From Minisyncoccota bacterium (GTDB lineage Bacteria > Patescibacteriota > Microgenomatia > UBA1400 > PJMF01): a DNA stretch of 64,000 nt. Below are positions 1-38,555 of the stretch, piece by piece (the first letter of the stretch is position 1; every line of letters begins with the position of its first letter). Under the pieces are notes generated by a model. The model made no database searches and had not been told where the DNA came from. It saw only the letters and a program-made list of their open reading frames with translations. The position numbers and the translations under genes were made by a program. Location of the stretch: contig JABGTR010000004.1 in assembly GCA_018646985.1 (NCBI GenBank), positions 2,946-66,945 on the forward strand, given 5' to 3'.

Positions 1-93
1 TAGATCTTTCATAATTTTTTTCCTTGTTTCCCCTCCTTTTGTATTTAACAAAAGAATCTGTTGACTAGGGTTATTTTATATAATTAATAATTT

Positions 94-702
94 TTATCGA
101 CTGTAGTACTCCACCACTAACTGTTCATCTATTCTTTCAATCACATCATCTCGGACTGGTAGGCTAGCAATCTTGGCTGCTGCACCTTTTCTTTTAATCC
201 ACTCTGGAGTAGTAACGCTTTCATCTTTAAGTAAATCAGATACATAAGGGATCTTCATCGCTTTATCTTTTAGATTTACTACATCCTCAACCTTAACTCG
301 GTAAGAAGGGATGCTCATCTTTTTTCCGTTTACCTGGACATGTCCATGAGAAACTAACTGCCTGGCTGAAAATCTTGTTGGAGCCCAACCAGCTCGGTAG
401 ACAACATTATCTAGTCTACGTTCAAGTAGGCCTAATAAAGCTGAACCAGTAGCAGTGGGGTTCTTACTAGCTTCTTTATAAAGACGACTCAATTGTTTTT
501 CTAAAATACCATAAATGTATTTCACTTTTTGTTTTTCTTGCAGCTGCAGACCATAATCAGAAACTTTACGACGTCCACGGTGACCGTGTTGTCCTGGTCT
601 GATCATTAACCGACGAGCTACTTTAAGAGCGTTAGTTTTTAAACCTAAGTCTTCACCGACTTTACGAGCTAGTTTGTTTTTTGGTCCTGTATATCTTGCC
701 AT
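94..702 (-). CDS. rpsD: 30S ribosomal protein S4
   Basis: 202 aa; N-terminus MARYTGPKNKLARK and S4 domain pattern; expected position after rpsK in the alpha operon. Confidence 0.95.
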   Translation of the reverse strand: MARYTGPKNKLARKVGEDLGLKTNALKVARRLMIRPGQHGHRGRRKVSDYGLQLQEKQKVKYIYGILEKQLSRLYKEASKNPTATGSALLGLLERRLDNVVYRAGWAPTRFSARQLVSHGHVQVNGKKMSIPSYRVKVEDVVNLKDKAMKIPYVSDLLKDESVTTPEWIKRKGAAAKIASLPVRDDVIERIDEQLVVEYYSR

Positions 703-727
703 AATTCTTTTTTAATATTTATCTGGT

Positions 728-1114
728 CTAGTTTCTACTTTTTCGTGGCTTAGTACCGTTATGAGGTAAAGGTGTCACATCAGCGATCATAGTTAATTTA
801 ATACGCTGAGCACGAATAACTCTCAGGGCCACATCTCTACCTGGTCCTGGTCCTTTAATAAAGAGCTCAATTTCGTTCATCCCAAAGGCCTTGGCCTTAT
901 TAATTGCATTCTCAACAGTGATAGTAGCTGCATAAGGAGTAGATTTTCTTGATCCACTAAAACCTGCTTCGCCAGTTGAAGACCAACACAGAACATTTCC
1001 TTTTTCATCAGTAATACTGACTAAAGTAGTGTTGAAGGTAGCAGTCACATACATTCTACCCTTAGGCACAACTTTTGAAATTTTCTTATTAGTTTTAACT
1101 CTTGGTTTTGACAT
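728..1114 (-). CDS. rpsK: 30S ribosomal protein S11
   Basis: 128 aa; conserved S11 C-terminus (PHNGTKPRKSR-like); sits between rpsM and rpsD. Confidence 0.95.
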   Translation of the reverse strand: MSKPRVKTNKKISKVVPKGRMYVTATFNTTLVSITDEKGNVLCWSSTGEAGFSGSRKSTPYAATITVENAINKAKAFGMNEIELFIKGPGPGRDVALRVIRAQRIKLTMIADVTPLPHNGTKPRKSRN

Positions 1115-1134
1115 ATTTTAGATATCTTTAAAAA

Positions 1135-1533
1135 TTATTTTCCAGCTGCTTCCATTTTAGCTGCTACTTCTTTAGCCAAAGCACCAACAGTTTTTCTTTT
1201 ACCTCGACCTGTTCTAGCGTTAGTCTTAGTTCTCTGACCTCGCACAGGTAATCCCTGACGATGACGAAGTCCTCTGTAGGAACCAATTCTTCGTAAACGA
1301 TCAACATTGTCTCTGACTATTCGTCGCAACTGACCACCAACAGCATGTTTTTCAAGCTGTTTGGCAATCTGATTAATTTCATCAGCAGTTAAATCTTTAG
1401 CTCTTTTTTCTGGATTTATTTTAGTGCTTTTAATAATCTTATCAGCTATCTTAGGACCTACTCCAAAAATATAGCGTAAGGAGAAGCTTACTTTCTTTTC
1501 ATCTGGAATATCAAAACCGGTTATTCTTGGCAT
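1135..1533 (-). CDS. rpsM: 30S ribosomal protein S13
   Basis: 132 aa; MPRITGFDIP start and basic C-terminal tail typical of S13. Confidence 0.95.
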   Translation of the reverse strand: MPRITGFDIPDEKKVSFSLRYIFGVGPKIADKIIKSTKINPEKRAKDLTADEINQIAKQLEKHAVGGQLRRIVRDNVDRLRRIGSYRGLRHRQGLPVRGQRTKTNARTGRGKRKTVGALAKEVAAKMEAAGK

Positions 1534-1560
1534 AAATGTAATTTATAAGTTTTTTTAACT

Positions 1561-1677
1561 TTATCCTTGTCTTTGTTTATGTCTAGGATCTGCCTTACAG
1601 ACCACTCTGACTACTCCTTTTCGTCTAACAATTTTGCAGCTGTCACAACGCTTTCCAACTGATGATCCTTTTTTCAT
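1561..1677 (-). CDS. rpmJ: 50S ribosomal protein L36
   Basis: 39-codon ORF missing from the supplied track (<60 aa). I translated the reverse strand by hand: [38 protein letters not shown], with the C-x2-C ... C zinc-ribbon pattern and KHKQRQG end characteristic of L36. Canonical infA-rpmJ-rpsM position. Confidence 0.85.
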
Positions 1678-1743
1678 ATTTTTATCTATACTTCTTTATT
1701 TATAGGTCGTAAATATACATCAAACCTCGAGTTATGAACAGCA

Positions 1744-2073
1744 CTAGTTTTGCTGCGTAGGTCTTTTGATTGATCTATAGGTTATTTTACACTTTCCGAG
1801 GTCATATTTTGACACATAACCCTTAACTTCATCTCCTGGCATGACTCTAATTCTGTAGAGTCTCATCTTGCCAGCTAAAGTCCCCAGTAAAACCTTATCT
1901 ACTAAGGCTGTAGCTGGAGCAGCAGTGACTCGGACTTTAAACATGGTGTTGGGGAGACATTGCTCCACTACACCTTCAATCTCCATTCGATCAGGATTTG
2001 ACTCCCTCTCAGATGTTCGATCTATCTGTCGACGTGCTTTAGCTGCTCTTTTATGATCTTGAACTTTTCCCAT
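1744..2073 (-). CDS. infA: translation initiation factor IF-1, with possible 29-aa basic N-terminal extension or mis-called start
   Basis: The C-terminal 80 aa (MEIEGVVEQCLPNTMFKVRV...GKMR...YDLGKCKITYR) match the IF-1 S1-like fold. The longest ORF adds MGKVQDHKRAAKARRQIDRTSERESNPDR upstream; an internal ATG at 1986 would give a canonical-length IF-1. Confidence 0.8.
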   Translation of the reverse strand: MGKVQDHKRAAKARRQIDRTSERESNPDRMEIEGVVEQCLPNTMFKVRVTAAPATALVDKVLLGTLAGKMRLYRIRVMPGDEVKGYVSKYDLGKCKITYRSIKRPTQQN

Positions 2074-2117
2074 ATAACAAGCTGTTATTATAACAGAATT
2101 TTACCCTGGTGACAGGG

Positions 2118-2648
2118 CTAAATATCTAATCCTTTACAAATTTGAGAGAAAACCTCATCGATGTCTTTTTCCCCATCAACGGAAAGCAATTTGCCCTTCT
2201 CTTTATAAAATTCCACCACCGGCTCAGTTTCTTGATGGAAAAGACCAATTCGTTTTCGAATTGCTTTCAAAGTCTCATCATCACGATCTTCTGATCTACC
2301 AGAGATACGCCATAGGGCTTCTTTATCTGACACATCAAGTAAGATTACTTTTTCCACCCCATTTTCAAACTGTTCAGCCTGAGTTACTGTTCTGGGGAAT
2401 CCATCTAAAATATAACCATTCTCGTACTCTGGCTTATCTAGATATTGAGAAATTATCTCAATGATAGTTTTGTCTGGAACCAATCTCCCAGAAGCCAAGA
2501 TTTCCTTTATCCATCTGTTTTCACGAGACATTTGACGAAGGACGTGACCTGAAGAAAGATAAGGAATCTGCAGTTTTTCTGAAAGCAGACTTCCCTGGGT
2601 TGATTTACCAGCTCCTTGTATTCCAATTAGGATCAATTTCATTAACAT
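2118..2648 (-). CDS. adk: adenylate kinase, short type (no zinc-lid insertion)
   Basis: 176 aa; P-loop GIQGAGKSTQ; short LID segment (GRSEDRDDE) without a Cys4 zinc motif; located after secY. Confidence 0.9.
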   Translation of the reverse strand: MLMKLILIGIQGAGKSTQGSLLSEKLQIPYLSSGHVLRQMSRENRWIKEILASGRLVPDKTIIEIISQYLDKPEYENGYILDGFPRTVTQAEQFENGVEKVILLDVSDKEALWRISGRSEDRDDETLKAIRKRIGLFHQETEPVVEFYKEKGKLLSVDGEKDIDEVFSQICKGLDI

Positions 2649-2722
2649 CCCCTTAGTGTTTGTCTAATAACTGTACTACTATACATCTTTTAACGGATAA
2701 TTCAATAATAAATTTAGAAAAA

Positions 2723-4006
2723 TCAACTATATTGGTCGTAGTTTTGACCAACTAGCATTGACTCAACTTGTTTAGAAGTTTCTAGGATGACAGAAACTAC
2801 GATTAAAATACTGGTTCCCCCAATAGCTAAGTTGCTGGCGCCAGTAAATACTTGGGCCAGGGATGGTAATAAAGCAATAAATCCTAAGAAAATAGCACCA
2901 GCTAAACTGATCCTAGTGACTACAAACTCTAAAAAGACCTTAGTGGGGCCACCTGGTCTCACCCCAGGAATAAAGGCGCCACTTTTTTTAAGCTCATCAG
3001 ACATATCTTGGGCATTAAAGAATAATAGAGCTGAAAAAAAAGTAAAACTAAAGACTATTACAAAGTAAGCAATCATATAAACAGCTGAGGTTGGATCAGA
3101 CCAAACTGTTAAAGTTTGACCAATCTCTACTAATCTATCCTGTCCACTTGCTGCTAAGAATCGGCCAATGAAAGAAGGCACTAACATGATTGAAACACCA
3201 AAAATGATTGGCATCACTCCAGCTACATTAACCCGGATGGGCAAATGGGTAGTTTGAGCTCCATAGTTTTTGCTGCCACGAGTTCTTCTAGCATATTGAA
3301 TTTTTACTTTTCTAATGGCTTCGTTCATAAACACAATCACCGCCACTACTGCTAAACCAATCGCTGTAAAAGTAAGGGTAGAAGTAAGTTGAGCAGTGCT
3401 GGTAGTAGCAAAAGATTGAGCGATTGCTAATGGAAATTGGCTGACTATTCCACCTAGTAGAATCATCGAAATCCCATTCCCCAAACCATACTCAGAGACT
3501 AACTCTCCCAACCACATCATAATCATTGCTCCAGCTACTAAACTAGTAATCAGCGCTATTAATGCCAATGGATTACTAGAATCCAGCAGCTGCTGTGAGT
3601 TGAGGAGGGCAATCACCGAGATACTTTGTACTACTCCCAAAGGAATAGTCATAATACGAGTGTATTGATTAACTTTTTCTCGACCCGCTTCGCCATCGCG
3701 CTGTAGTTCTTTTAGCTTAGGAAAAATCATACTTCCCAGCTGCATGATAATCGAAGCTGTAATGTAAGGATTAATACCAACTGCCACAATTGAAAAATTA
3801 GCTAGGGTTCCACCAGAGAAGATATTTAAAAAACTTAAAAATTGATTTGCAGAAAAAATACTCTCTAGTCTATTGAGATCAACTCCTGGAACTGGAACGT
3901 GAGCTAGAAACCTAAAAATGAAAAATACACCTAAAGTAAATAAAAGTTTATTTTTTAACTTCTTGGTAGAAAACACGCGTTGAATTAAATCAAAAATCTT
4001 CTGCAT
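2723..4006 (-). CDS. secY: preprotein translocase subunit SecY
   Basis: 427 aa polytopic membrane protein in the expected position after rplO. Confidence 0.93.
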   Translation of the reverse strand: MQKIFDLIQRVFSTKKLKNKLLFTLGVFFIFRFLAHVPVPGVDLNRLESIFSANQFLSFLNIFSGGTLANFSIVAVGINPYITASIIMQLGSMIFPKLKELQRDGEAGREKVNQYTRIMTIPLGVVQSISVIALLNSQQLLDSSNPLALIALITSLVAGAMIMMWLGELVSEYGLGNGISMILLGGIVSQFPLAIAQSFATTSTAQLTSTLTFTAIGLAVVAVIVFMNEAIRKVKIQYARRTRGSKNYGAQTTHLPIRVNVAGVMPIIFGVSIMLVPSFIGRFLAASGQDRLVEIGQTLTVWSDPTSAVYMIAYFVIVFSFTFFSALLFFNAQDMSDELKKSGAFIPGVRPGGPTKVFLEFVVTRISLAGAIFLGFIALLPSLAQVFTGASNLAIGGTSILIVVSVILETSKQVESMLVGQNYDQYS

Positions 4007-4027
4007 CTCTAATAATGATAACGTAGA

Positions 4028-4462
4028 TTACTTGGTAGAACCACCAGCGCTTTCAATCGCTTTCTTGCTGCCAGCGGAAACTGGAATCTCAACCGTTACT
4101 TTACGGGTCAACTTTCCAGTACTTACCAGCTTAGCTTTTCTAAAACGAGCGTTGATAACTTTTTCGAGCTTCAATGTTTCTAAACTAATTACCTTAGATT
4201 CCATTTTTTCAATATCAGTCAAAGTTACTTCTGCTGTAGGAACTAAAACGTTAAATCTACCTTTACCACGTAACATAGGCAGACGCTTAGTTAATGGTAA
4301 TTGACCACCTTCAAACCAAAGCGGAATCTTAGAACCGACACGAGATCTCTGACCTTTCATACCTCTGCTAGAAGTATGTCCACCTTTACCAGATCCATAA
4401 CCACGACCAATGCGCTTGGATGATTTACTAACAATGCTGGTGAGATTATTTAAAAGTGACAT
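4028..4462 (-). CDS. rplO: 50S ribosomal protein L15
   Basis: 144 aa; Gly/Arg-rich N-terminus (GRGYGSGKGGHTSSRGMKGQRSR) typical of L15. Confidence 0.93.
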   Translation of the reverse strand: MSLLNNLTSIVSKSSKRIGRGYGSGKGGHTSSRGMKGQRSRVGSKIPLWFEGGQLPLTKRLPMLRGKGRFNVLVPTAEVTLTDIEKMESKVISLETLKLEKVINARFRKAKLVSTGKLTRKVTVEIPVSAGSKKAIESAGGSTK

Positions 4463-5163
4463 TATTTCTTTTTGACCTTAACTGTTTTTTTAGCTACTGT
4501 TTCTTTTTTAACGGCTGCTTTTTTTACCACAGGTTTCTTAGATTTAACGGTCTTAGCTTTGGCTTTGGGAGCCTTGCTAGCAACTACTTTTTTGTCACTC
4601 TTTTTTACAACTGGCTTCTTCTTAGCTTTTTCTTGTAGCTCAGCTTCTTTCTTCTTTTCTTCTGCTTGAACTTCTGCTAATGAACGCAGCTTAATGCCTT
4701 TAATTTTGACTAAATCTGCAATCTGCTTCAAAGCTTCAAAAGTAGCATAAGCATTAGAGGCTTTATTACCTGTGCCTAAAATCTTACTAGAAATGTCTCT
4801 AATTCCAGCTGCTTCAACTACAGCTCTGACTGGGCCACCAGCAATGACTCCGGTTCCCTTAGGAGCTGGCTTAAGAATTAACTGAGCCGCACCCTTTTTG
4901 ACACTGACTCTAAAAGGAACAGTAGTGCCATCGATAGGAATTTGAATCATTTTTTTCTTAGCTTTTTTAACACCCTTACGAATAGCGGAGACAACATCTG
5001 AGGCTTTACCCTTACCAACTCCAATCTTACCTTTTTTATCTCCCACCACCATTACTACTGAAAATCCAAATGAATTACCACCTTTAGTCTTTTTAGAAAC
5101 TCTAGAAACTTGAATAACTTTTTCTTCAAGATTGTCTTTAGGTTGTTGTTTGTAATCTGCCAT
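4462..5163 (-). CDS. rpsE: 30S ribosomal protein S5 with ~70-aa lysine/alanine-rich C-terminal extension
   Basis: 233 aa; S5 core (dsRBD-like plus GIRDISSKILGTGN region) followed by KKKPVVKKSDKKVVASKAPKAKAKTVKSKK... tail. Its stop overlaps the rplO start, leaving no room for an L30 gene. Confidence 0.92.
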   Translation of the reverse strand: MADYKQQPKDNLEEKVIQVSRVSKKTKGGNSFGFSVVMVVGDKKGKIGVGKGKASDVVSAIRKGVKKAKKKMIQIPIDGTTVPFRVSVKKGAAQLILKPAPKGTGVIAGGPVRAVVEAAGIRDISSKILGTGNKASNAYATFEALKQIADLVKIKGIKLRSLAEVQAEEKKKEAELQEKAKKKPVVKKSDKKVVASKAPKAKAKTVKSKKPVVKKAAVKKETVAKKTVKVKKK

Positions 5164-5175
5164 TATTTTTTCCTT

Positions 5176-5541
5176 TTACAGTTTTAATCCTGCTTTTCTA
5201 AGTGACTCTGCTACTGCTTTGACTCGACCATGATATCGATAATAACCACGATCAAAGACTAATTCCTTAACTTTTTTCTTATCTAACTGTTGAGCAATAT
5301 CTTTAGCCACCTTAACAGCACGCTCTGTTTTAGTGCCAGTTATTTTTGAATCTTTTCTAGCATCATTAGCTGAAGCAAGTGTCTTACCAGAATCATCATC
5401 TATAACTTGCAAATAACAGTATTTATTAGAACGAAGCACATTCAATCTAGGCCTGCTAGCAGTCCCATGAATGTTCACCCTAACTCTAATCTTGCGTTTT
5501 TGCTTGACAGTTAAATTATGTTTTATTTTTGGCATGATCAT
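5176..5541 (-). CDS. rplR: 50S ribosomal protein L18
   Basis: 121 aa; expected position and length; basic N-terminus. Confidence 0.9.
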   Translation of the reverse strand: MIMPKIKHNLTVKQKRKIRVRVNIHGTASRPRLNVLRSNKYCYLQVIDDDSGKTLASANDARKDSKITGTKTERAVKVAKDIAQQLDKKKVKELVFDRGYYRYHGRVKAVAESLRKAGLKL

Positions 5542-5542
5542 T

Positions 5543-6082
5543 TTAAGCTATTGAAGCTTTTCCTTGTTTACGCTTGACTACTTCATCTTCATAACGAATC
5601 CCTTTGCCCTTATATGGCTCAGGCTTCTTAACTAATCTAATTTCAGCAGCAGTTTGACCGACTTGTTGCTTATCGATTCCTGAAACAATGATTGTATCAT
5701 TACCTTCAAGAGCAAGAGTAATGCCTGCGGGAGCTGAAAACTCAACATCATGAGAGAACCCAACTTGAAGGTTAAGCCCTGTTCCACGCTGCTGAACTCT
5801 ATATCCAGTTCCGACCATTTTTAAAGTTTTTTTATAACCTTCAGTAACACCAATTACATTATTGTTAATCAAGCTACGAATCAAGCCATGATTAGCATTA
5901 GTTTGTTTCTCATGGTTAGTGGTTAAAACCTCCAAAGTATTATCTTTTTGCTCGACTTTGATTCCAGATAAAATCTTAGTACTTAATTCTCCCTTAGGAC
6001 CTTTAACCACCACCGCATCTTTACCGATTTCAACGGTAACTCCGGCTGGAATATTGATAAGCATGCGTCCAATTTTTGACAT
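5543..6082 (-). CDS. rplF: 50S ribosomal protein L6
   Basis: 179 aa; duplicated L6 domain pattern; expected position. Confidence 0.92.
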   Translation of the reverse strand: MSKIGRMLINIPAGVTVEIGKDAVVVKGPKGELSTKILSGIKVEQKDNTLEVLTTNHEKQTNANHGLIRSLINNNVIGVTEGYKKTLKMVGTGYRVQQRGTGLNLQVGFSHDVEFSAPAGITLALEGNDTIIVSGIDKQQVGQTAAEIRLVKKPEPYKGKGIRYEDEVVKRKQGKASIA

Positions 6083-6088
6083 ATAAAT

Positions 6089-6481
6089 TTACCAAACCTG
6101 ACAAAGGATTTCACCGCCAACATTCTTTTGGCGAGCTTCCTTATCAGCGATCACTCCTTGATTAGTACTTAAAATAGTAATGCCGTATCCTCCAAGTGTT
6201 GCTGGAATTTCCCCAGCTGATACATAGAGTCTTCTACCTGGTTTAGAAATTCTTTTGACTCCACTTACCACCGGCAATGAGCCAGCATATTTTAATGAAA
6301 TCTTCAATTGCTTTTGTGGCTTAGAATCCAAGGTCTCCACATTTTCTAAATATTTTTGATCCAATAAAATTCCAGCAATGGCTGCTCTCATCTTCGAATG
6401 AGGCATCACCACTTCTTCATGACCTGCTGCCAGGGCATTCTTAATTCTAATTAACATATCAGCTATTGAGTCAGTGTACAT
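6089..6481 (-). CDS. rpsH: 30S ribosomal protein S8
   Basis: 130 aa; MYTDSIADMLIRIKNA start typical of S8. Confidence 0.93.
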   Translation of the reverse strand: MYTDSIADMLIRIKNALAAGHEEVVMPHSKMRAAIAGILLDQKYLENVETLDSKPQKQLKISLKYAGSLPVVSGVKRISKPGRRLYVSAGEIPATLGGYGITILSTNQGVIADKEARQKNVGGEILCQVW

Positions 6482-6490
6482 ATTTATTCT

Positions 6491-6748
6491 TTATTTATTA
6501 GCTCTTACTACTCCGGGTAATTCCCCTTTATTTGCTAGCTCTCTAAAAGTTATTCTGCTTAACCCAAAGTATCTTAGGTAACCGCGAGGACGACCTGTAA
6601 TCTTACAACGATTCTTACCTCTAGTCGAGACTCTATTTGGCTTACTTTCACCTTGCTGCTTGTATTCTTCTAAATACTTAGCTCTTTTTGCTTGCAGCTT
6701 AAGTGACTTGATTACTTTTGATTTTTTAGCCATGGTTTTCCTTTTCAA
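6491..6748 (-). CDS. rpsN: 30S ribosomal protein S14 (non-zinc type; start probably at internal ATG 6733)
   Basis: 85 aa; [10 protein letters not shown]...[16 protein letters not shown] end typical of S14; only one Cys so not the Zn-ribbon form. The longest ORF overlaps the rplE 3' end by 23 nt; the 6733 start reduces this to 8 nt. Confidence 0.85.
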
Positions 6749-7286
6749 ACGGCATTCCTAATAACTCTAAAAGACGGAATGACTCTTGATCATTTTTAGT
6801 GCTGGTGACTATTGTAACCTGTAAACCTCTAATTTGATTGATTAAATCATAGTTTATCTCGGGAAATACAATTTGCTCTTCTAAACCTAAGTTATAATTA
6901 CCTCGGCCATCAAAAGCTTTTCTAGAGACGCCTTGGAAGTCTTTAACTCGAGGTAGAGTGATGCTAACTAGTTTATCTAGAAACTCCCACATCTGCAGGC
7001 CTCGCAGAGTTACCATGGCTCCAACTGGGTCACCTTCACGAAGAGTAAAACCAGCGATGGCTTTACGTGCTAGGGTCACGTTTGGTTTTTGCCCAGTGAT
7101 GATCTTGAACTGATCAATAATATTATCCATAATCTGCCATCTAGCTCGAGGCTCGGTAGGCTGAGTTACACCCATATTAATCACAATCTTATTCACTTTT
7201 GGCACAGCCATTAGCGAACTCATCTTCAATTCTTTTTGAAGCTGAGGGGCTATCTTTTTGGAATATTTCTCTTGTAATCTGTTCAT
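6726..7286 (-). CDS. rplE: 50S ribosomal protein L5
   Basis: 186 aa; expected position between rplX and rpsN; conserved L5 core. Confidence 0.92.
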
Positions 7287-7291
7287 TTCAA

Positions 7292-7624
7292 TTATTTCTT
7301 TAATTTCTTTTTATCTAAAGCAGGCACTGGTTGACCAGTTTTCTTAAAAATACGTTCCTTAGAACCATCCTTAGCAACTTTATAGCCAATTCTGTCTACT
7401 TCTCCCTTATCATTCAAAATAGCTATTTTTGCGACCGACATCGGTCTTTCTCGACGCACTTTATCCCCAGGCTTATCACCAATAGGCTTAATATGTTTAC
7501 TGTACATATTGGCACCTTTAACAATAACTTTGTCTTGAGTGGGAAATACTTTAACTATTTCTTCCTTTTGACCTTTATCTTTTCCAGATGTGACTAGTAC
7601 TTTATCGCCGACTTTAAATTTCAT
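7292..7624 (-). CDS. rplX: 50S ribosomal protein L24
   Basis: 110 aa; KOW motif MKFKVGDKVLVTSGKDKG. Confidence 0.92.
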   Translation of the reverse strand: MKFKVGDKVLVTSGKDKGQKEEIVKVFPTQDKVIVKGANMYSKHIKPIGDKPGDKVRRERPMSVAKIAILNDKGEVDRIGYKVAKDGSKERIFKKTGQPVPALDKKKLKK

Positions 7625-7632
7625 ATCTTAAG

Positions 7633-8007
7633 TTATAAAACCTCCGATGCTAAACTAGCAATCTTGTTATAATTTCTTTCCTTTACTTCTCTGGCTACTG
7701 GCCCAAAAACTCTAGTTCCAACTGGATCAACACTATGTCTGGACTCAATAATTACGGCGGCATTATCATCAAAACGAACGTACTCACCTGTTTCGCGTCG
7801 TTTTTCTTTTCTGGTTCTAACAATCACGGCTCGCACAACTTCACCTCTTCTGATTTCACTTTGTGGTTGAGCTGAGATGACAGAGGCGCTGACCACATCA
7901 CCCACATGGCCAAAGCGTCTTCTTGATCCACCATAGACCTGAATAACTCGGAGTGTTTTAGCTCCGCTATTATCTGCAACTTGTAAAACTGATCTTAACT
8001 GAATCAT
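7633..8007 (-). CDS. rplN: 50S ribosomal protein L14
   Basis: 124 aa; [17 protein letters not shown] start is highly conserved in L14. Confidence 0.95.
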
Positions 8008-8008
8008 C

Positions 8009-8251
8009 TTATTTTTTTACCTTCTTAATAACTCTAAAACGCTTAGTTTTGCTAACTGGCCGACACTCTTCGATAATTACTTCATCATTTAATTTGAGGC
8101 CATCAACTCCTTCTGAATGACACATGTAGTTTTTGCTACGTTTGACACTCTTTTTGTATAAAGGGTGTTGCCACTGACGCTCTATCTCAACCTTAACGGT
8201 TTTGTCTGAAGACAATGAAATTATTTTTCCCTGTAGTTGTTTTTTAGGCAT
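8009..8251 (-). CDS. rpsQ: 30S ribosomal protein S17
   Basis: 80 aa; expected position and length; OB-fold pattern. Confidence 0.9.
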
Positions 8252-8481
8252 TACTTGTTTTCCTTAGCTACTGATTCTTTGGCTGAAACTTGCTTCTCAC
8301 GAAGAATGGTTTTAACTCGAGCAATATCGTCTCTAATTTTACCAGGTAATCTGGTATCTTCAAGCTTACCTGCTGGTAATTCCAGTTTTGCTTTAGCCAA
8401 GCTTTTTCTCAGCTCTACCAGCTGCTGTTCCAGCTCACCATTAGTTTTGTCATGTAGGGCTTTTATATCGTTTCTTTTCAT
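8251..8481 (-). CDS. rpmC: 50S ribosomal protein L29
   Basis: 76 aa helical protein (ELRKSLAKAKLEL) between rplP and rpsQ. Confidence 0.88.
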   Translation of the reverse strand: MKRNDIKALHDKTNGELEQQLVELRKSLAKAKLELPAGKLEDTRLPGKIRDDIARVKTILREKQVSAKESVAKENK

Positions 8482-8483
8482 GT

Positions 8484-8888
8484 CTATTTTTCCACAATCT
8501 GAGTTTTAACTGATATCTTATGTGCTGCTTTTCTCAAGGCTTCTTTGGCCATTTCTCCGGTAACTCCACCAAGTTCAAATAAAATTTTCCCTGGTAGAAC
8601 TGTAGCTACGTACTCTTTAATTTCTCCCTTACCTGAACCCATTTTTACTCCAACTGGCTTGCTGGTAATTGGCTTATCTGGAAAAACTCTAATCCAATAT
8701 TTACCGCTTCTTTTAGTGACATGAGTAATTTTCTTACGAGCTGCCTCAATCTGACGAGCTGAAATCCAGCCTCTACCAACAGCTTTTAGACCAAACTCTC
8801 CAAAAGAAAGATCACTCCCCCGAAGAGCTGTGCCTCTCATCTTGCCTCTGAACTGCTTGCGGAATTTAGTTTTTTTAGGTTGTAACAT
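8484..8888 (-). CDS. rplP: 50S ribosomal protein L16
   Basis: 134 aa; [19 protein letters not shown] start typical of L16. Confidence 0.95.
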
Positions 8889-8901
8889 AGTTCTTTACGT
8901 T

Positions 8902-9555
8902 CTAGATTGTCTTTTCACCCTTATAAATCCATACTTTGATTCCCACATACCCAGATCTGGTTCTAGCAGCATGGTGATGATAATCAATATTAGCTCTTAA
9001 GGTTTGAGTAGGGACACTGCCTTGAGTGTATTTTTCAGATCTGGCAATTTCTGCTCCACCGATTCTACCGGAAAGCTGAATCTTTATTCCTTTGGCTCCA
9101 GCTTGCATCACCTTTTCAAGTGCCTGCTTGATAGCTCTTCGATGCGGATAACGAGAAATTAGCTGTTGAGAAATTCTTTCGGCAACTAATTTTGAACTTA
9201 AATTTGGCTCATTAACTTCACTCACCTGCAGATCAACTTGAACCTTATCTTTCTTGAGTTTTGAAACGTTCAATATTTTCTCAACATCTTTTCTAATCTC
9301 TTCAAGATTGGAGCCACCTCTACCAATAACTACACCTGGTCTTGAAACTGAGATAATGATTTTAATTTTCTTGACACTACGCTCGATCAATACTTCTACT
9401 AAGCCAGCATTGGTGAGCTTATCATTAAGATATTTTCTAAGCTTAAAATCTTCAATTACTTTATCAGAGTATTTTTTAGCAGGAGTATACCAACGTGATT
9501 TCCAGTTAAAGGTAATACCTAATCTAAAGCCGGTAGGATGTACTTTCTGTCCCAT
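8902..9555 (-). CDS. rpsC: 30S ribosomal protein S3
   Basis: 217 aa; MGQKVHPTGFRLG start and KH domain. Confidence 0.95.
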   Translation of the reverse strand: MGQKVHPTGFRLGITFNWKSRWYTPAKKYSDKVIEDFKLRKYLNDKLTNAGLVEVLIERSVKKIKIIISVSRPGVVIGRGGSNLEEIRKDVEKILNVSKLKKDKVQVDLQVSEVNEPNLSSKLVAERISQQLISRYPHRRAIKQALEKVMQAGAKGIKIQLSGRIGGAEIARSEKYTQGSVPTQTLRANIDYHHHAARTRSGYVGIKVWIYKGEKTI

Positions 9556-9556
9556 A

Positions 9557-10030
9557 TTATTTGTTTTTCTTTGCCTTAGTTGTTACTTTTTTCTTAGCCG
9601 GCGTGGCTACCTTAGTTTTTTTAGCTGTTTTCTTAGTTTCTTTTTTGGCAGCTTTCTTGACTTCTTTCTTAACTGCTACTTCTTTTTTAGGCTTATCTTC
9701 TTTGACTTCAAGCTCAACCATGACATGAGAAGTTCTCTTCATGATGCTATGAGCTCTGCCTCTACTCACAGCTCTCCATCTTTTATAAACGGAGCCTGGA
9801 GTGACTTGGATGCTAGATAAAACCAAGCTTTCAAAAGGTAAGCGATGATTATTCATCGCATTGGCAATTGCCTGCTTGACTACTTTTAAGATGCTTAAAC
9901 TAGCTCTTCTGTTTATCACAGCCAACTGACGCATGGCTTGTTCTAAAGACAAATCTTTGACTTCATTAGCCACCAATCGCATTTTGCGAGGTGTCTGTCT
10001 GATTTGTTTCTGTGTAGCTTTAATTTTCAT
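9557..10030 (-). CDS. rplV: 50S ribosomal protein L22 with lysine-rich C-terminal extension
   Basis: 157 aa; L22 core followed by EDKPKKEVAVKKEVKKAAKKETKKTAKKTKVATPAKKKVTTKAKKNK. Confidence 0.9.
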   Translation of the reverse strand: MKIKATQKQIRQTPRKMRLVANEVKDLSLEQAMRQLAVINRRASLSILKVVKQAIANAMNNHRLPFESLVLSSIQVTPGSVYKRWRAVSRGRAHSIMKRTSHVMVELEVKEDKPKKEVAVKKEVKKAAKKETKKTAKKTKVATPAKKKVTTKAKKNK

Positions 10031-10034
10031 ATCT

Positions 10035-10319
10035 TTAAGTCTTAGTAGCTGTTCGTTTCACCATTCTGCCGTGACCTCTAAAAGTACGAGTCAAGGAGAA
10101 CTCACCTAATTTATGTCCGACCATGTCTTCAGTGCAAAAAACTTCTTTGAACTCTCGACCCTGATGGACTGCAAAAGTATGTCCGACAAACTCAGGAGCA
10201 ATAGTACAATCACGAGACCAAGTCTTAATTGGAGTTTTTTGTCCAACCTGCTTTTGCTTCATGACCTTAGCGATTAGCTTTGGGTCAACATGTGGTCCTT
10301 TTTTACTTGATCTTCCCAT
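10035..10319 (-). CDS. rpsS: 30S ribosomal protein S19
   Basis: 94 aa; [11 protein letters not shown]...GHTFAVHQG conserved S19 motifs. Confidence 0.95.
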
Positions 10320-10339
10320 ATTTTTTGTCTTGTCTTACT

Positions 10340-11173
10340 TTATATTTTAACTCTTCTATCTCTAATAATAAACTTGCTACTCTTACGTTTACCACGAGTC
10401 TTTTTGCCCAAAGCATGTTTACCCCAAGGAGTCTTAGGATATTTCATACCCACCCCAGATCTACCTTCACCTCCTCCATGAGGATGTGAGCCTGGATGTT
10501 GAGCAACACCTCTCACGGTTGGACGGATACCCATCAATCTCTTTCGACCAGCTTTACCAATCTTTCGATTCTTCCAATCGTGATTTCCAACCTGGCCAAT
10601 TGTAGCGTAGCACTTGAGGTTAATCAAACGCAGCTCTTTAGATGGTAATTGGACAGTCGCATACTTACCTTCTTTAGCTTGGACATAGGCTGCTGTCCCT
10701 GCTCCACGGACTATCTGAGCACCTTTGCCTGGTGTCATCTCAAGATTATGAATCGGAATACCAATCGGCACATTACGTAACGGCATGGCATTACCAGTCT
10801 TAATCTCAACTTTTTCTCCAGCAATAACTTGATCGCCAATATTCAATTCGTCTGGGGCAACCATATATTTCTTTTCACCATCTGGGTAGATGATCAAAGC
10901 AATATTAGCGCTTCTCATTGGATCGTACTCAATTCTCTCGACTCGACCAGCAATATCTCGTTTTCGACGTTTCCAGTCAATAATACGCATTCTTTTCTTC
11001 ACCCCACCACCTCGATGACGCATGGTAATGTGACCTTTATAACCACGACCCTGACGTTTCTTATGGCCCTTGGCTAATAAAGATTTCTCTGGCTCACCTT
11101 TGTATAGATCGCTGCGATCTAAGACAACTTGGTGGCGAGTTCCAGGAGTAGTTGGTTTTCTTTTCTTTAACAT
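10340..11173 (-). CDS. rplB: 50S ribosomal protein L2
   Basis: Conserved L2 core (GRNxxGxITxRHRGGGxKRxYR). The ORF runs to 11194, but the ATG at 11173 (MLKKRKPTTPG) matches canonical L2 N-termini and removes the overlap with rplW. Confidence 0.93.
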   Translation of the reverse strand: MLKKRKPTTPGTRHQVVLDRSDLYKGEPEKSLLAKGHKKRQGRGYKGHITMRHRGGGVKKRMRIIDWKRRKRDIAGRVERIEYDPMRSANIALIIYPDGEKKYMVAPDELNIGDQVIAGEKVEIKTGNAMPLRNVPIGIPIHNLEMTPGKGAQIVRGAGTAAYVQAKEGKYATVQLPSKELRLINLKCYATIGQVGNHDWKNRKIGKAGRKRLMGIRPTVRGVAQHPGSHPHGGGEGRSGVGMKYPKTPWGKHALGKKTRGKRKSSKFIIRDRRVKI

Positions 11174-11174
11174 A

Positions 11175-11471
11175 TTATTGGTTGTAAATATCAAATAATT
11201 CTATATTGTCACCTTCTTTAAGAGTTGCCATAGCTTTTTTAACTTGGGCAATTTGCTTCTCTAAACGACGCTTGCCAGTTTTCTTAACACTTACATTTCT
11301 AGTAGTAGTGTTAATTCTCAATACAGTTACGCTATAAAGCTCTTCAATTGCTTCTTTGATTTGCTGCTTATTGGCTAATCGATCTACTTCAAAAGTGTAG
11401 GTATTGCTTGCGTTAGCCAGCTGCATTGATTTTTCAGTAATGATTGGTCGTTTTAAGATATATGGATTCAT
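11175..11471 (-). CDS. rplW: 50S ribosomal protein L23
   Basis: 98 aa between rplD and rplB. Confidence 0.88.
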   Translation of the reverse strand: MNPYILKRPIITEKSMQLANASNTYTFEVDRLANKQQIKEAIEELYSVTVLRINTTTRNVSVKKTGKRRLEKQIAQVKKAMATLKEGDNIELFDIYNQ

Positions 11472-11473
11472 TT

Positions 11474-12127
11474 TTAGCTATCTTTTTTGACTACTTTAAT
11501 ATGCTTAGCTAATTTTTCTTCAAGCTGTTTGAGAGCGTCTGTGGTGATAATGATCTTATCAGCTAAAGAAACCTCGTAGATATTGATTCGCTGTGCTCTA
11601 GTCACCACCACTCTTTGAATGTTTCTCAAACTTCTGATTATTTCTGGATTAGACTCAGTCAAAACAACTAAGATTTTTTCATTTTTATCTCTGATCTTAC
11701 TAAGCAACTCTACAGCTTGCTTGGTCTTACCAGTTAGCTCATTGAAGCCATCACAGACGACAATATTTTTTTGCTGAGCACTTAAAGCAGAGATCAATGC
11801 TTGAGACTTAAAACGTTTGGTGAGCTTAAGCTTCCAATTAGATAGGCCAGTTGGGCCATGGGCCACACCACCACCTACAAAAATTGGAGCATTTTTAGAA
11901 CCATGACGAGCATTACCAGTTCCTTTTTGAGCATATGCCTTCTTTTTAGTGCGGTTAACAGCAGATCTGTTTTTGACTTTACTAGTTCCTTGACGTTGAT
12001 TGGCTAAATAAACTCGAATGCCTTGAGAGAGCAATTTCTTATTTACTTCAGCATTAAAGACAGTTTCACTGGCTGTGACAGCAGTCTTACTTTTAGCACC
12101 AGTTTTTGTATAAGTAGTTAATTTCAT
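11474..12127 (-). CDS. rplD: 50S ribosomal protein L4
   Basis: 217 aa; expected position and L4-like pattern. Confidence 0.9.
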   Translation of the reverse strand: MKLTTYTKTGAKSKTAVTASETVFNAEVNKKLLSQGIRVYLANQRQGTSKVKNRSAVNRTKKKAYAQKGTGNARHGSKNAPIFVGGGVAHGPTGLSNWKLKLTKRFKSQALISALSAQQKNIVVCDGFNELTGKTKQAVELLSKIRDKNEKILVVLTESNPEIIRSLRNIQRVVVTRAQRINIYEVSLADKIIITTDALKQLEEKLAKHIKVVKKDS

Positions 12128-12864
12128 TATTTAGTTTCTTCCTCTTTAGACTCAGGTTCTGCAGCGACTTCCTTGACTACAATGCCTGAGGCATCATTAT
12201 CTAACTCAATCATTTTTTTATCACCAGTTTTAGTGATCTTAACTGTGGATGAATAAAATCCTGGTACTGGGCCGCTGAGCCAAACTTCGCCAGTTTCTTG
12301 ATCTAAATGAACTACTACTAAGCCACTGATAGTCTTAGTATCAGTTCCGTAGTGTCCAGGCATCTTTTTTCCTGGCCAAACACGACCTGGGTCTGTACCA
12401 GCACCGATTGATCCTGGAGCACGTTCTCGATCTGATTGACCATGAGTACGTTGACCACCACTGAATCCCCAGCGCTTCATGACGCCAGCAAAACCTCGAC
12501 CTTTAGTTATTCCTTGGACTTTAACTACATCACCCACTTCTAAAACTTGACCCACTTTAACAACATCGCCGATCTTGGTTTGATCAGCGCTATCATTTTC
12601 GTCTTGAGTTGAAGGAGTGAATTGTTTAACTCCTTGGAGTTGGGTTACACCTATAGAAAAACCACTCTTTTGCATTTTGCTGCGGAGTGGCTTAGACATG
12701 TTTTTTATTTTTTTCTGACCATAGCCAACTTCAAAAGTATCAGCTGATTTTTTATCAACTATTAAATTATCATCAGCTTTGCAACGAGTAATAGCCAGCC
12801 GCTTACCTTGTTTTGACCAGGCTTGGGTCATATCTAGTTTGGTGGCAAAAATACTGTATAACAT
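12127..12864 (-). CDS. rplC: 50S ribosomal protein L3
   Basis: 245 aa; KLDMTQAW near the N-terminus matches the L3 KVGMTQ motif; acidic C-terminal extension. Confidence 0.9.
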   Translation of the reverse strand: MLYSIFATKLDMTQAWSKQGKRLAITRCKADDNLIVDKKSADTFEVGYGQKKIKNMSKPLRSKMQKSGFSIGVTQLQGVKQFTPSTQDENDSADQTKIGDVVKVGQVLEVGDVVKVQGITKGRGFAGVMKRWGFSGGQRTHGQSDRERAPGSIGAGTDPGRVWPGKKMPGHYGTDTKTISGLVVVHLDQETGEVWLSGPVPGFYSSTVKITKTGDKKMIELDNDASGIVVKEVAAEPESKEEETK

Positions 12865-12935
12865 GGTTCTTTTTTTCTTTAATCAGCAAATTTAGTTTTA
12901 TCATTCTTTTTTTAAGAAGCCCTGACAACTTCTTG

Positions 12936-13265
12936 TTACATCTTGATTTGGATATCAACCCCTGCAGGTAACTCCAAATGCATTAACGAGTCAATTGTTT
13001 TACTCGTTGGGTTGACAATGTCAATCAACCGTTTATGGGTTCTAATAACGTATTTCTCCTGCGAATCCTTGTCCGTGTGTGGAGAGATAATCACCGTAAA
13101 CCATTTACGATGGGTTGGTAAAGGAATTGGTCCTTTAACCATCGCCCCAGTTGATAAAGCAGTCTCTAAAATCTTTTTACCAGCTTCATCGACTACTCGA
13201 TGATCATAAGATTTGAGTCTGACTCTAATTTTGTAGGCGTCGTTTTTCTTAGAACTTGTTGCCAT
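12936..13265 (-). CDS. rpsJ: 30S ribosomal protein S10
   Basis: 109 aa; [14 protein letters not shown] matches the S10 consensus; first gene of the S10 operon. Confidence 0.93.
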
Positions 13266-13314
13266 ATTTTGTTAATGTTTTATTAGTTTCTATCTATACT
13301 TAAAACAAAGCGTG

Positions 13315-13343
13315 ATTATATCTGGTCTCTGCCTGGTTGTACA
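13315..13343 (-). promoter_or_regulatory. candidate sigma70-type promoter of the S10 operon (-35 TGTACA, 17-nt spacer, -10 TATAAT)
   Basis: Minus strand reads TGTACA-N17-TATAAT about 50 nt upstream of the rpsJ start and just downstream of the tuf terminator hairpin. Confidence 0.4.
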
Positions 13344-13407
13344 GAGTTATTTCGCTTTATTTATTTATTAAGACTAGGCGACTATTGTAACAGAGCTTTC
13401 TATAAAT

Positions 13408-13435
13408 GAAAAGTCCCGCCTCGGCGGGACTTTCC
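13408..13435 (-). terminator. Rho-independent terminator downstream of tuf
   Basis: Perfect GC-rich inverted repeat (gaaaagtcccgcc TCGG cgggacttttc), followed on the minus strand by a T-rich tract and located 17 nt after the tuf stop. Confidence 0.7.
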
Positions 13436-13451
13436 TCATATTTTAATTATA

Positions 13452-14648
13452 TTATTTTATAATTTTTGTAATTGCTCCAGCACCAATAGTGTGGCCACCT
13501 TCGCGGATAGCGAAGCGTAATCCATCAGCCATAGCTACAGGGACAATTAGCTTAACAGTCATCTTAGCGTTGTCGCCAGGCATGACCATTTCAACACCAT
13601 CAGGGAGAGCAATCTCTCCAGTTACATCAGTAGTTCTGATGTAAAACTGAGGTCTGTATCCGGTGAAAAATGGCTTATGACGACCACCTTCTTCTTTGGT
13701 TAAGATATATACTTCAGCTTCAAACTCGGTGTGAGGGCTAGCAGTGCCTGGCTTAGCCAAGACCTGACCACGTTCGATGTCATCTTTACCGATCCCTCTA
13801 AGGAGGATACCGACGTTGTCTCCAGCTTGACCATCGTCAAGTAATTTACGGAACATCTCGACACCTGTAACGGTGGTTTTAGCAGTATCTCTAATACCAA
13901 CCATCTCAATTTCTTCACCCACTTTGACTTTACCAGAGGCAATGCGACCAGTCACAACTGTACCGCGGCCTTTGATTGAAAAGACATCTTCGATTGGCAT
14001 TAAGAATGGTTTATCAAGATCGCGAACTGGCTCTGGAATGTATTCATCAACAGCGTTGATTAATTCCATCACTTTATCTTGAGCTTCAGCATCACCTTCG
14101 AGAGCTTTAAGAGCACTCACTCGGACTACTGGAGCATTATCACCATCAAATTTGTATTTAGTTAAGAGTTCCCTGACTTCCATTTCGACTAAGTCTAAGA
14201 GTTCAGGATCATCAACCATGTCAACTTTATTTAAAGCGACAATAATTTTTGGAACGTTAACTTGTTTAGCTAAGAGGATATGCTCTCTGGTTTGAGGCAT
14301 AGGACCATCATTAGCGGCGACTACCAAGATAGCACCGTCCATTTGAGCGGCACCGGTGATCATGTTTTTAATGTAATCAGCATGTCCTGGAGCATCAATA
14401 TGAGCATAATGACGTTTTTCAGTCTCGTACTCAATGTGGGAAATGTTAATTGTCACACCTCGAGCTGCTTCTTCAGGAGCATTGTCGATATCTAAATATC
14501 CAAGTGCTTTATTAATATCACTGGGCAGCTTGGCTGCTAATGTTTGGGTAATAGCGGCGGTTAGAGTAGTTTTACCATGGTCGACGTGACCAATGGTGCC
14601 CACGTTAACGTGAGTTTTATCTCTCTTGAATTTCTTGTCGTCTGACAT
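13452..14648 (-). CDS. tuf: elongation factor Tu
   Basis: 398 aa; [14 protein letters not shown] and NKVD G-motifs. Confidence 0.97.
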
Positions 14649-14708
14649 ATTGTCTCCTTTTATGTTTGCTAATGTGTATAGCTAAATATTTTTTTACTTT
14701 TTACTAAA

Positions 14709-29603: not shown

Positions 29604-29652
29604 ATTATTACTATACCTCAACTTAAACCCGAAGAGTACTATTCTATTTATT

Positions 29653-37778: not shown

Positions 37779-38555
37779 ATGATTATTAAATCTCAAACAG
37801 AACTAGCTACTTATAAAAAAGCCACTCAACTTTCTAAAGAAATTTTGTCTCAGCTACGAGAAGCTATTAAACCTGGGGTTTACCCGATTGAACTAGATAT
37901 CTTAGCTGGTGAGCTATGCAAAAAGAATGGGGTGAGATCGTCTTTTAAAGGTGTGGTAAGCGGTCATCTAACCTATGGTTTTAACAGCTGCATCTCTGTT
38001 AATGATGAAATTTTACATGGAATCCCCAGCGATAAAAGAAAAATTCAAGCAGGTGATTTAGTCAAAATCGATTTTGGAATTATTTATCAAGGTTTTTATA
38101 CAGATCATTGTTTTACCGTGGGAGTAGGCAGCATTTCAGCTGAAGATCAAAAACTGTTAGAAATTGGTCGTGAAGCAGTTTTGAATGCAGTCAAACTAGC
38201 TAAGCCAGGAAATACAGCTGGAGACCTAGGATTTGCCATGCACAACACTTCTTATAAAGCTGGTTTTGATACTCTCAAACAATACGTGGGCCACGGTATT
38301 GGAAAAAGTCTTCATGAAAATCCTGAAATCCCAGCTTTTGGTAAACCTGGGGCAGGGGCAAAGCTTGAAAAAAACATGATTATCTGTGTTGAGTGTCAGG
38401 TTGTAACTGGTGATGATCGAGTCTATATCGAAAATAATGGTTGGACAGTTAAAACTAAAGACAGCGGCAAAGGAGTCATGTTTGAGTACATGGTCAGAGT
38501 TGACAAAAAACCAGAGATCTTAACCCCAACGCAAGACTGGCCACTAACAGTTTAA
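37779..38555 (+). CDS. map: methionine aminopeptidase type I
   Basis: 258 aa; pita-bread-fold metal-ligand blocks (D...D...H...E...E; YVGHGIG). Located away from the spc/alpha operon. Confidence 0.9.
   Translation: MIIKSQTELATYKKATQLSKEILSQLREAIKPGVYPIELDILAGELCKKNGVRSSFKGVVSGHLTYGFNSCISVNDEILHGIPSDKRKIQAGDLVKIDFGIIYQGFYTDHCFTVGVGSISAEDQKLLEIGREAVLNAVKLAKPGNTAGDLGFAMHNTSYKAGFDTLKQYVGHGIGKSLHENPEIPAFGKPGAGAKLEKNMIICVECQVVTGDDRVYIENNGWTVKTKDSGKGVMFEYMVRVDKKPEILTPTQDWPLTV

Follow-up and report, generated by a model that had tools for sequence, protein, structure and literature searches.

The DNA analyzed here (the window) is a stretch of 64,000 nucleotides from contig JABGTR010000004.1 of the Minisyncoccota bacterium assembly GCA_018646985.1. 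It carries a ribosomal protein gene cluster in which rpmD, the gene for ribosomal protein uL30 (L30), is missing from its usual site between rpsE (uS5, S5) and rplO (uL15, L15), and in which S5 and uL22 (L22) each end in a long tail rich in lysine and alanine. We consider it probable that L30 was lost in the ancestor of the Candidate Phyla Radiation (CPR), and that S5 and L22 later and independently acquired polycationic tails providing dispensable electrostatic contacts with RNA.

The rpsE gene is located at 4462..5163 on the minus strand and encodes an S5 protein of 233 amino acids (aa) including the tail, with the Pfam domains Ribosomal_S5 and Ribosomal_S5_C at residues 12-152. The rplO gene (4028..4462, minus strand) encodes an L15 protein of 144 aa that matches Pfam Ribosomal_L27A. 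The preliminary description of this DNA had reported that the rpsE stop overlaps the rplO start, and the open reading frame (ORF) list and the sequence confirmed it: at the junction AAGAAATAATGTCA, one base of TAATG (4460..4464, minus strand) belongs to both the TAA stop and the ATG start, at the usual rpmD site. Therefore, there is no space for rpmD at its usual position.

The L30 proteins of E. coli, B. subtilis, T. thermophilus, and M. tuberculosis were used as tblastn queries, and a hidden Markov model (HMM) built from all four was run by hmmsearch --max on six-frame ORFs of at least 30 aa from the window and 52 fetched loci. The best tblastn match in the 64-kb window had an E value of 0.3, which is noise. 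No HMM score was better than E = 0.6 outside the positive controls, two Chloroflexi loci in which L30 was detected between S5 and L15 with E values of about 1e-20. Neither the 64-kb window nor the related loci, which amount to about 600 kb, yielded a uL30 homologue, and the absence of L30 from the window is solid. The absence of the gene claimed earlier was thus upheld by tblastn for these 64 kb, while absence from the whole genome rests on the literature. S5 was directly followed by L15, without L30, in all 43 related clade loci and in 3 CPR loci that are more distantly related. From the S5 stop to the L15 start, the gap ranged from -1 to 119 nt in the 43 clade loci (59-91% S5 identity) and was mostly below 20 nt; it was 2-24 nt in the three more distant CPR loci. 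In the Chloroflexi controls, however, the gap was 300-342 nt, with L30 inside.

CPR bacteria all lack L30, and their genomes have S5 and L15 in close proximity (Tsurumaki et al. 2022, bioRxiv 10.1101/2022.01.07.475337); that paper credits the CPR complement without uL30 to Brown et al. 2015. No uL30 was reported in a published survey of 69 complete CPR genomes. L30 has also been lost in Mollicutes, Halanaerobiales, and several endosymbionts (Galperin et al. 2021). Loss of L30 in CPR is already known, and it is not CPR-specific, contrary to its earlier presentation as a CPR hallmark. In two Chthoniobacter (Verrucomicrobia) loci, L050 and L052, S5 adjoined L15 with a gap of 2-8 nt and no L30 was detected within the locus; L22 in these loci had a lysine/alanine-rich tail of 49-55 aa. 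Because both features occur in Chthoniobacter, neither the abutment of S5 and L15 nor the lysine/alanine-rich L22 tail is exclusive to CPR.

The two C-terminal tails were borne out. The rplV gene (9557..10030, minus strand) encodes an L22 protein of 157 aa including the tail, with Pfam Ribosomal_L22 at residues 5-107. Alignment to solved chains placed the canonical protein ends at about residues 160-167 in S5 and 106-112 in L22. The S5 extension is about 66 aa past the canonical end and 75 aa past the Pfam/conserved core, and the L22 extension is about 45 aa past the canonical end and 48 aa past the conserved core. Both reach more than 20 aa beyond the ends of the E. coli and B. subtilis proteins, and both are kept among relatives. 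The S5 tail contains 37% lysine, 15% alanine, 16% valine, 4% proline, and 9% glutamate, and the L22 tail contains 46% lysine, 15% alanine, 10% valine, 12% threonine, and 4% proline; the mean lysine content of the 72 likely genes of the window is 8.6%. The tails are the densest lysine stretches of the window: they reach 14 lysines per 30 residues, as against 10 at most in any other ORF. Tail presence was counted in the 120 best homologue clusters of each protein, a tail being at least 40 residues after the core. By this count, S5 was tailed in 117/120 clusters (median 69 aa) and L22 in 93/120 (median 49 aa).

Abnormal lengths of ribosomal protein genes in CPR bins can stem from sequencing or assembly errors, according to a published caution, and the tails or the missing L30 could accordingly be assembly or frameshift artefacts of a metagenome bin. 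However, at least 52 contigs that were assembled independently carry the identical 233-aa S5 protein (P0001), which is indexed in 97 blocks drawn from NCBI, JGI, Logan, and ENA, and an independent JGI marine contig (sample 3300000198) reproduced the whole operon with identical S5 and L22. The homologues share the tails, and the reading frame stays open in over 100 diverged sequences. We conclude that the tails are real; the artefact explanation is effectively refuted.

The S5 tail consists of two different parts. Residues 159-183 (LRSLAEVQAEEKKKEAELQEKAKKK; 4615..4689, minus strand) form a charged segment that is conserved across the 43 clade loci. The first 8 or so of these residues belong to the canonical S5 end, and the extension begins at about residue 168. 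Among 68 homologues, L159 was invariant, and S161, E169, and Q177 were conserved in at least 90%. AlphaFold2, given an alignment of the 68 sequences, predicted a helix at residues 162-182, with a predicted local distance difference test (pLDDT) score of 62-75. Residues 184-233 (4465..4614, minus strand) make up a variable polycationic stretch rich in lysine, valine, alanine, and proline; AlphaFold2 predicted no structure for residues 187-233 (pLDDT below 50), and among relatives the part beyond residue 183 is an unalignable stretch of 20-80 residues rich in lysine, alanine, valine, proline, threonine, and glutamate. The L22 tail (residues 111-157; 9560..9700, minus strand) is likewise a predicted disordered polycation that contains a tandem repeat and varies in length among relatives. 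The L22 core was predicted with a pLDDT of about 97, and residues 116-157 had a pLDDT below 50 and no secondary structure. On this modelling, the conserved S5 helix is the only part of the tails that looks like a specific contact. In a Microgenomates-like subgroup (L017, L029, L031, and L037), the L22 tail ends in a conserved motif that is not of low complexity, ...AIKLDRSKNQAAKLQGSGKGQANKLIQSQKKGSK; its sequence conservation suggests a specific binding element, unlike the purely lysine-rich tail of the window.

We analyzed how the tails vary within the clade. The protein lengths of S5 (171-263 aa) and L22 (112-205 aa) were spread widely, and those of L29 (63-87 aa) and L24 (102-134 aa) modestly, whereas L2 (276-278 aa), S19 (94 aa), L16 (134-136 aa), L6 (178-182 aa), and L15 (143-149 aa) were nearly fixed. 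The standard deviation of length was 18-25 aa for S5 and L22, and mostly 0-3 aa for the other operon proteins. L4 lengths also varied but are unreliable at locus edges, and single-locus outliers in L23, S17, L5, L14, and S8 are unverified. The projected outliers include an L23 of about 406 aa (L020), an S17 of about 134 aa (L028), and an L5 of about 246 aa (L021), which may be lineage-specific extensions or fusions, or artefacts of stop-to-stop ORF projection. The L22 tail itself ranged from 2 to 96 aa among relatives. A short L22 tail could in principle be offset by long L24, L29, or S5 tails. This was ruled out, as no convincing correlations were found: the lengths of S5 and L22 gave rho = -0.33 (p = 0.06), and L22 showed no convincing correlation with L24 or L29 either. 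The only significant length correlation was that between L29 and L24 (rho = 0.39).

The DNA of both tails contains imperfect in-frame tandem repeats, of 18 bp at 4485-4525 in the S5 tail and of 24 bp at 9617-9671 in the L22 tail, and in a close relative (L004) a 45-bp repeat of 15 codons is present in 2.5 copies with 98% identity within the S5 tail. In a DNA alignment of four close relatives, all length changes were in-frame, and both the part coding for the helix and a AAGAAATAA end beside the L15 start were conserved. Composition also changed with base composition. In correlations made across loci with a genomic GC content of 33% to 50%, without phylogenetic correction, alanine rose with GC significantly in both tails (L22: rho = 0.62, p = 0.0006), valine dropped significantly for S5 only, and lysine dropped significantly for L22 only. 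The mean net charge, however, was constant at +10.7 in both tails across this GC range.

Some relatives carry no long tail. In locus L006, S5 is truncated inside the helix (LRSVTQVEKQEKD) and the downstream DNA is deleted, while its near relative L003 has a 49-aa tail. Two 169-aa S5 proteins (P0038 and P0071; 79-84% identity) have truncated tails, and L22 tails of at most 5 residues were found in six clade loci. As judged from these sequences, the tails have been secondarily lost in some relatives. Other CPR loci (Saccharibacteria L049, L047, and L046) have no L30, and their S5 tails are 0-20 aa long. L30 loss was therefore earlier than, and independent of, the S5 tail.

This order of events bears on the possibility that the S5 tail is a remnant of rpmD, which would have arisen if the S5 stop was lost, S5 and L30 were fused, and the L30 part decayed to low complexity. 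The tail, at about 200-225 nt, does lie in the same place as rpmD plus spacer and is roughly of the same size. However, the L30 HMM (--max) was silent on every S5 ORF and every tail-region frame in 53 sequences, while the controls scored about 1e-20, and the tail-less CPR lineages L047 and L049 also lack L30, so that the loss came first. Besides, what is conserved in the tail is a charged helix that does not resemble L30, and the similar L22 tail has no lost neighbour gene. A decayed L30 was therefore rejected on the negative HMM search and on the earlier date of L30 loss, and we regard it as extremely unlikely.

The variation within the tails bears on a second alternative, in which the tails are neutral, functionless low-complexity expansions produced by slippage in an AT-rich genome (38% GC) and tolerated at exposed termini, and in which their charge is just what the ribosome surface and DNA rich in AAA and AAG allow. 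This is the main rival to our interpretation. It would account for the tandem repeats within the tail DNA, for the wide length variation in comparison with the rest of the operon (barring L4 and the few unverified outliers), for a composition that follows GC content, for repeated losses, and for the disorder predicted by AlphaFold2. However, tails are retained in 117/120 (S5) and 93/120 (L22) diverged lineages of a genome-reduced clade, and the net charge stays near +10 despite sequence turnover. Drift does not predict the conservation of the first 25 residues of the S5 tail with near-invariant positions, and expansion is limited to a few proteins instead of affecting all termini. The charge and the near-universal retention of the tails argue against neutrality of the disordered parts, and we judge neutral expansion to be somewhat unlikely.

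Several points weigh against the interpretation that we favor, namely CPR-ancestral L30 loss followed by independently gained tails that contact RNA. The extreme variability of the tails in sequence and length, together with the secondary losses (S5 in L006, P0038, and P0071, at 79-87% core identity, and L22 in six loci), fit little or no function equally well. The AlphaFold2 confidence of the S5 helix is only moderate, the GC correlations are uncorrected for phylogeny, and L30 loss is taken from the literature for the part of the genome outside the 64 kb covered by the window.

Under the favored interpretation, the events may have proceeded as follows. After rpmD was lost in the CPR ancestor, S5 and L15 would have become translationally coupled through the TAATG overlap. 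A Pacebacteria/Microgenomates-like clade would later have gained C-terminal extensions on uS5 and uL22, independently of L30 loss. The S5 extension would be a charged alpha-helix (about residues 159-183), probably packed on the 30S surface, followed by a 50-aa disordered polycation, and the L22 extension would be a disordered polycation of 45-48 aa. The tails lengthen and shorten by in-frame tandem duplication or slippage, and their composition drifts with genomic GC, with the net charge held near +10. They would be cationic tethers exposed to the solvent and would touch the rRNA backbone or other nearby RNA through non-specific electrostatic interactions, and these contacts would modestly aid the assembly or stability of a reduced ribosome. 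The tails would be helpful yet dispensable, because some close relatives have lost them.

In the ribosome, uS5 is a neighbour of uS4 and uS8 and occupies the solvent side of the 30S body by the mRNA entry region, and uL22 is located on the 50S surface around the tunnel exit and is not known to be adjacent to the uL30 site. We infer the positions of the tails, the S5 tail at the former site and the L22 tail at the latter, from this general knowledge of ribosome structure, and we likewise infer that they bind RNA. Extra rRNA contacts are plausible by analogy with the L22 extension of M. pneumoniae. The tails are unlikely to replace uL30, since uS5 belongs to the 30S subunit and uL22 is not known to lie beside the uL30 site.

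The preliminary description had also called the tails histone-H1-like. This likeness stood for composition only. The C-terminal domain (CTD) of histone H1, Chlamydia Hc1, and the mycobacterial HupB CTD are lysine/alanine-rich disordered polycations that bind nucleic acid by charge, and the tails of the window are polycations of the same general sort (37-46% lysine, 15% alanine). They differ in their low proline (4%), their valine content (10-16%), and their attachment to globular ribosomal domains. Homology was not detected: with E values up to 10, hmmscan against Pfam returned no family and phmmer against PDB returned no match for the tails. A C-terminal query of 103 aa gave only a non-significant, compositional match to the lysine-rich N-terminus of Euglena eL31 (E = 0.2). 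Homology of the tails to histone H1, Hc1, or another family was rejected on these empty Pfam and PDB searches.

A lysine/alanine-rich composition could nevertheless serve a truly H1-like or an extraribosomal role, in which the tails bind DNA, mRNA, or partners such as RNA polymerase instead of rRNA, for example by anchoring ribosomes to the nucleoid where the cell is very small or by capturing mRNA at the S3/S4/S5 entry site. S5 is situated at the mRNA entry/RNA polymerase interface, M. pneumoniae S6 crosslinks to the RNA polymerase delta subunit, and the predicted S5 helix could be a spacer that projects the cationic segment. However, the tails have no homology to linker histones, Hc1, or any family, L22 lies near the tunnel exit and far from the mRNA path, and the tails are dispensable in some relatives. 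Binding of DNA, mRNA, or RNA polymerase is possible, but we regard an extraribosomal role as the explanation of the tails as very unlikely; RNA on the ribosome, rather than DNA, is most likely their target.

The most noteworthy by-product of the analysis concerns translation initiation factor IF-1. The infA gene (1744-2073, minus strand) encodes an IF-1 of 109 aa, whereas all solved IF-1 structures have 71-83 aa. Its N-terminus carries a basic extension of 24 aa (MGKVQDHKRAAKARRQ...; MGKVQ[DE]HKR.AK..RQ) that is near-invariant across the Pacebacteria-like clade and resembles the basic N-terminal tail of a/eIF1A. The protein also has 7 inserted residues within the OB fold and a C-terminus that is longer by about 8 residues. 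IF-1 was 104-125 aa long in all 120 best homologue clusters, and the alignments of IF-1 from Saccharibacteria locus L049 and from L047 begin only at residue 22-24. These features allow a speculative reading, to which we give little credence, in which the S5 extension is a clade-specific functional module: a conserved ER/K-type helix would dock on or project from the 30S solvent face, and the cationic stretch behind it would capture mRNA, rRNA, or a partner. Along with the IF-1 extension, the OB insertion, and the L22 tail, this module would constitute a remodelled small-subunit/initiation surface, which, if real, would compensate for the rRNA and protein elements missing from reduced ribosomes.

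The S5 and L22 genes belong to a contiguous str-S10-spc-alpha ribosomal cluster on the minus strand (1-16,832), as determined from ORFs and Pfam matches. The gene order is fusA, tuf, S10, L3, L4, L23, L2, S19, L22, S3, L16, L29, S17, L14, L24, L5, S14, S8, L6, L18, S5, L15, SecY, adk, infA, L36, S13, S11, and S4. Upstream of S5 is rplR (uL18; 5176..5541, minus strand; Pfam Ribosomal_L18p), and downstream of L15 is secY (2723..4006, minus strand), which was identified as an ORF and by the JGI annotation PF00344 on the identical locus L001. L36 was located by tblastn at 1564-1677 (minus strand). The adk gene (2118..2648, minus strand; Pfam ADK) is directly followed by infA, with no map gene between them. 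The map gene, encoding methionine aminopeptidase, was found 33 kb away at 37779..38555 on the plus strand (tblastn E = 2e-37; Pfam Peptidase_M24), where it starts one base after an M29 aminopeptidase gene (36534-37778, plus strand) and forms an aminopeptidase pair with it. The relocated map had been read as a pointer to CPR, but the order adk-map-infA is kept in 23/43 clade loci and in three other CPR loci and is absent from the remaining 20/43, including the five closest relatives. Map relocation was therefore ruled out as a CPR marker; it is a rearrangement within a sub-lineage.

The CPR/Patescibacteria assignment itself held up. For S5, L22, and IF-1, the top homologues carry the names Patescibacteria or Candidatus Pacebacteria, and related genome loci are named Patescibacteria, Candidatus Pacebacteria, Microgenomates, or Woesebacteria. 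An identical IF-1 is filed as Candidatus Pacebacteria in NCBI, which places Pacebacteria under the phylum Minisyncoccota, and samples from marine sites or Saanich Inlet yielded several of the closest relatives. By similarity ranking, the organism is an uncultured marine Pacebacteria-like CPR/Patescibacteria bacterium. Many metagenome-assembled genomes in GenBank (L002, L004, L005, L007-L012, and others) are filed as "uncultured Pseudomonadales bacterium" (also HK-STAS-PATE-15/16/17), yet they are clearly Patescibacteria by ribosomal protein similarity and gene order. Their Pseudomonadales labelling appears to be a systematic taxonomy mislabel.

Other features of the window were also recorded. 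The 64 kb contained no rRNA gene, and tRNA and Rfam scans found no tRNA gene and no Rfam family at the gathering threshold, including ribosomal protein leader RNAs, by which such operons are controlled in other bacteria; tblastn did not find L9 in the window, and this gene normally sits elsewhere in the genome. Other traits of CPR ribosomes are the lack of bL9 in Microgenomates and rRNAs with introns or shortened helices. The rpoB (21460-24915) and rpoC (17753-21454) genes, both on the minus strand, are not preceded by the usual L10-L7/L12 genes; YceG (25126-26103) and RuvX (26119-26502), also on the minus strand, lie upstream of them instead. The 3' end of an alanyl-tRNA synthetase ORF of 607 aa with catalytic and SAD domains (29653-31476, minus strand) overlaps a 760-aa ORF with no Pfam match (27450-29732, minus strand), which is followed by a gene for a sortase-domain protein (26506-27453, minus strand). 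The 760-aa ORF may encode a sortase substrate or reflect an unusual C-terminal arrangement of alanyl-tRNA synthetase.

Compared with the CPR ribosomes surveyed to date, the window agrees in the adjacency of S5 and L15 without rpmD, in the enlarged L22, and in its Patescibacteria/Pacebacteria-like proteins. L22 is listed among the enlarged CPR ribosomal proteins, S5 is not listed, and S19 of Parcubacteria has an alanine/lysine-rich C-terminal region (Tsurumaki et al. 2022, bioRxiv 10.1101/2022.01.07.475337). The window differs in the presence of the S5 tail and in its tail-less S19 of 94 aa. Among the loci examined, only the Pacebacteria/Microgenomates-like clade has the S5 tail and its conserved helix; Saccharibacteria and other CPR loci lack it. 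The result for L30 is mainly confirmatory, in that a known CPR trait, the absence of uL30 with S5 and L15 as one translational unit, holds in a marine Pacebacteria-like lineage. The descriptive novelty lies in the concentration of length variation in uS5 and uL22, and less in uL29 and uL24, within the clade, and in an S5 with a conserved helical base and a fast-changing polycationic end in which charge rather than sequence is maintained. No solved CPR ribosome was found among the PDB sequence matches to S5 and L22 or in a literature search. Close relatives with and without tails provide a natural series for the question of whether disordered cationic extensions stabilise reduced ribosomes.

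Among solved ribosomes, L22 proteins with C-terminal tails are those of M. tuberculosis (197 aa; 5v7q/5v93), M. smegmatis (153 aa; 5o60/5o5j), Cutibacterium acnes (153 aa; 8crx), and M. pneumoniae (159 aa; 7ood/7ooc). Lysine/alanine-rich L22 tails are thus not CPR-specific, as they occur in Mycobacterium, Cutibacterium, and Mycoplasma as well as in Chthoniobacter. Mycobacterium and Cutibacterium are high-GC organisms that keep L30. In phmmer alignments, the actinobacterial L22 tails (proteins of 153-197 aa) align as far as residues 135-153 of the window protein, and the alignment of actinobacterial S5 (214-220 aa) extends to window S5 residue 175, inside the helix segment. However, the actinobacterial tails contain more alanine and proline and are not demonstrably homologous to those of the window.

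M. pneumoniae shares a reduced genome, the lack of L30, and extended S5 and L22 proteins with the window, and its L22 extension, also C-terminal, aligns into the window L22 tail. In this organism, 11 ribosomal proteins, including L22 and S5, have extensions. They face the solvent, and disorder is predicted for most of them; that of L22 forms a helix which lies on peripheral rRNA at a distance of more than 30 Å from the tunnel exit. Extensions of the 30S subunit crosslink to other proteins, as S6 does to the RNA polymerase delta subunit, and fitness drops when extensions are disrupted (Xue et al. 2022, bioRxiv 10.1101/2021.12.18.473270). [quoted passage not shown] The two systems differ in that the M. 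pneumoniae S5 extension is N-terminal (the core occupies residues 63-204 of 219), whereas that of the window is C-terminal, and in that the M. pneumoniae L22 extension is helical in the model, whereas the window L22 tail is predicted to be disordered. The tails of the two organisms have no sequence homology and are therefore of independent origin. Such extensions and the loss of L30 have been described before in CPR, Mollicutes, and Actinobacteria, and no new kind of biology is involved; the tails of the window add a new, clade-specific case to an established type of ribosomal protein extension.

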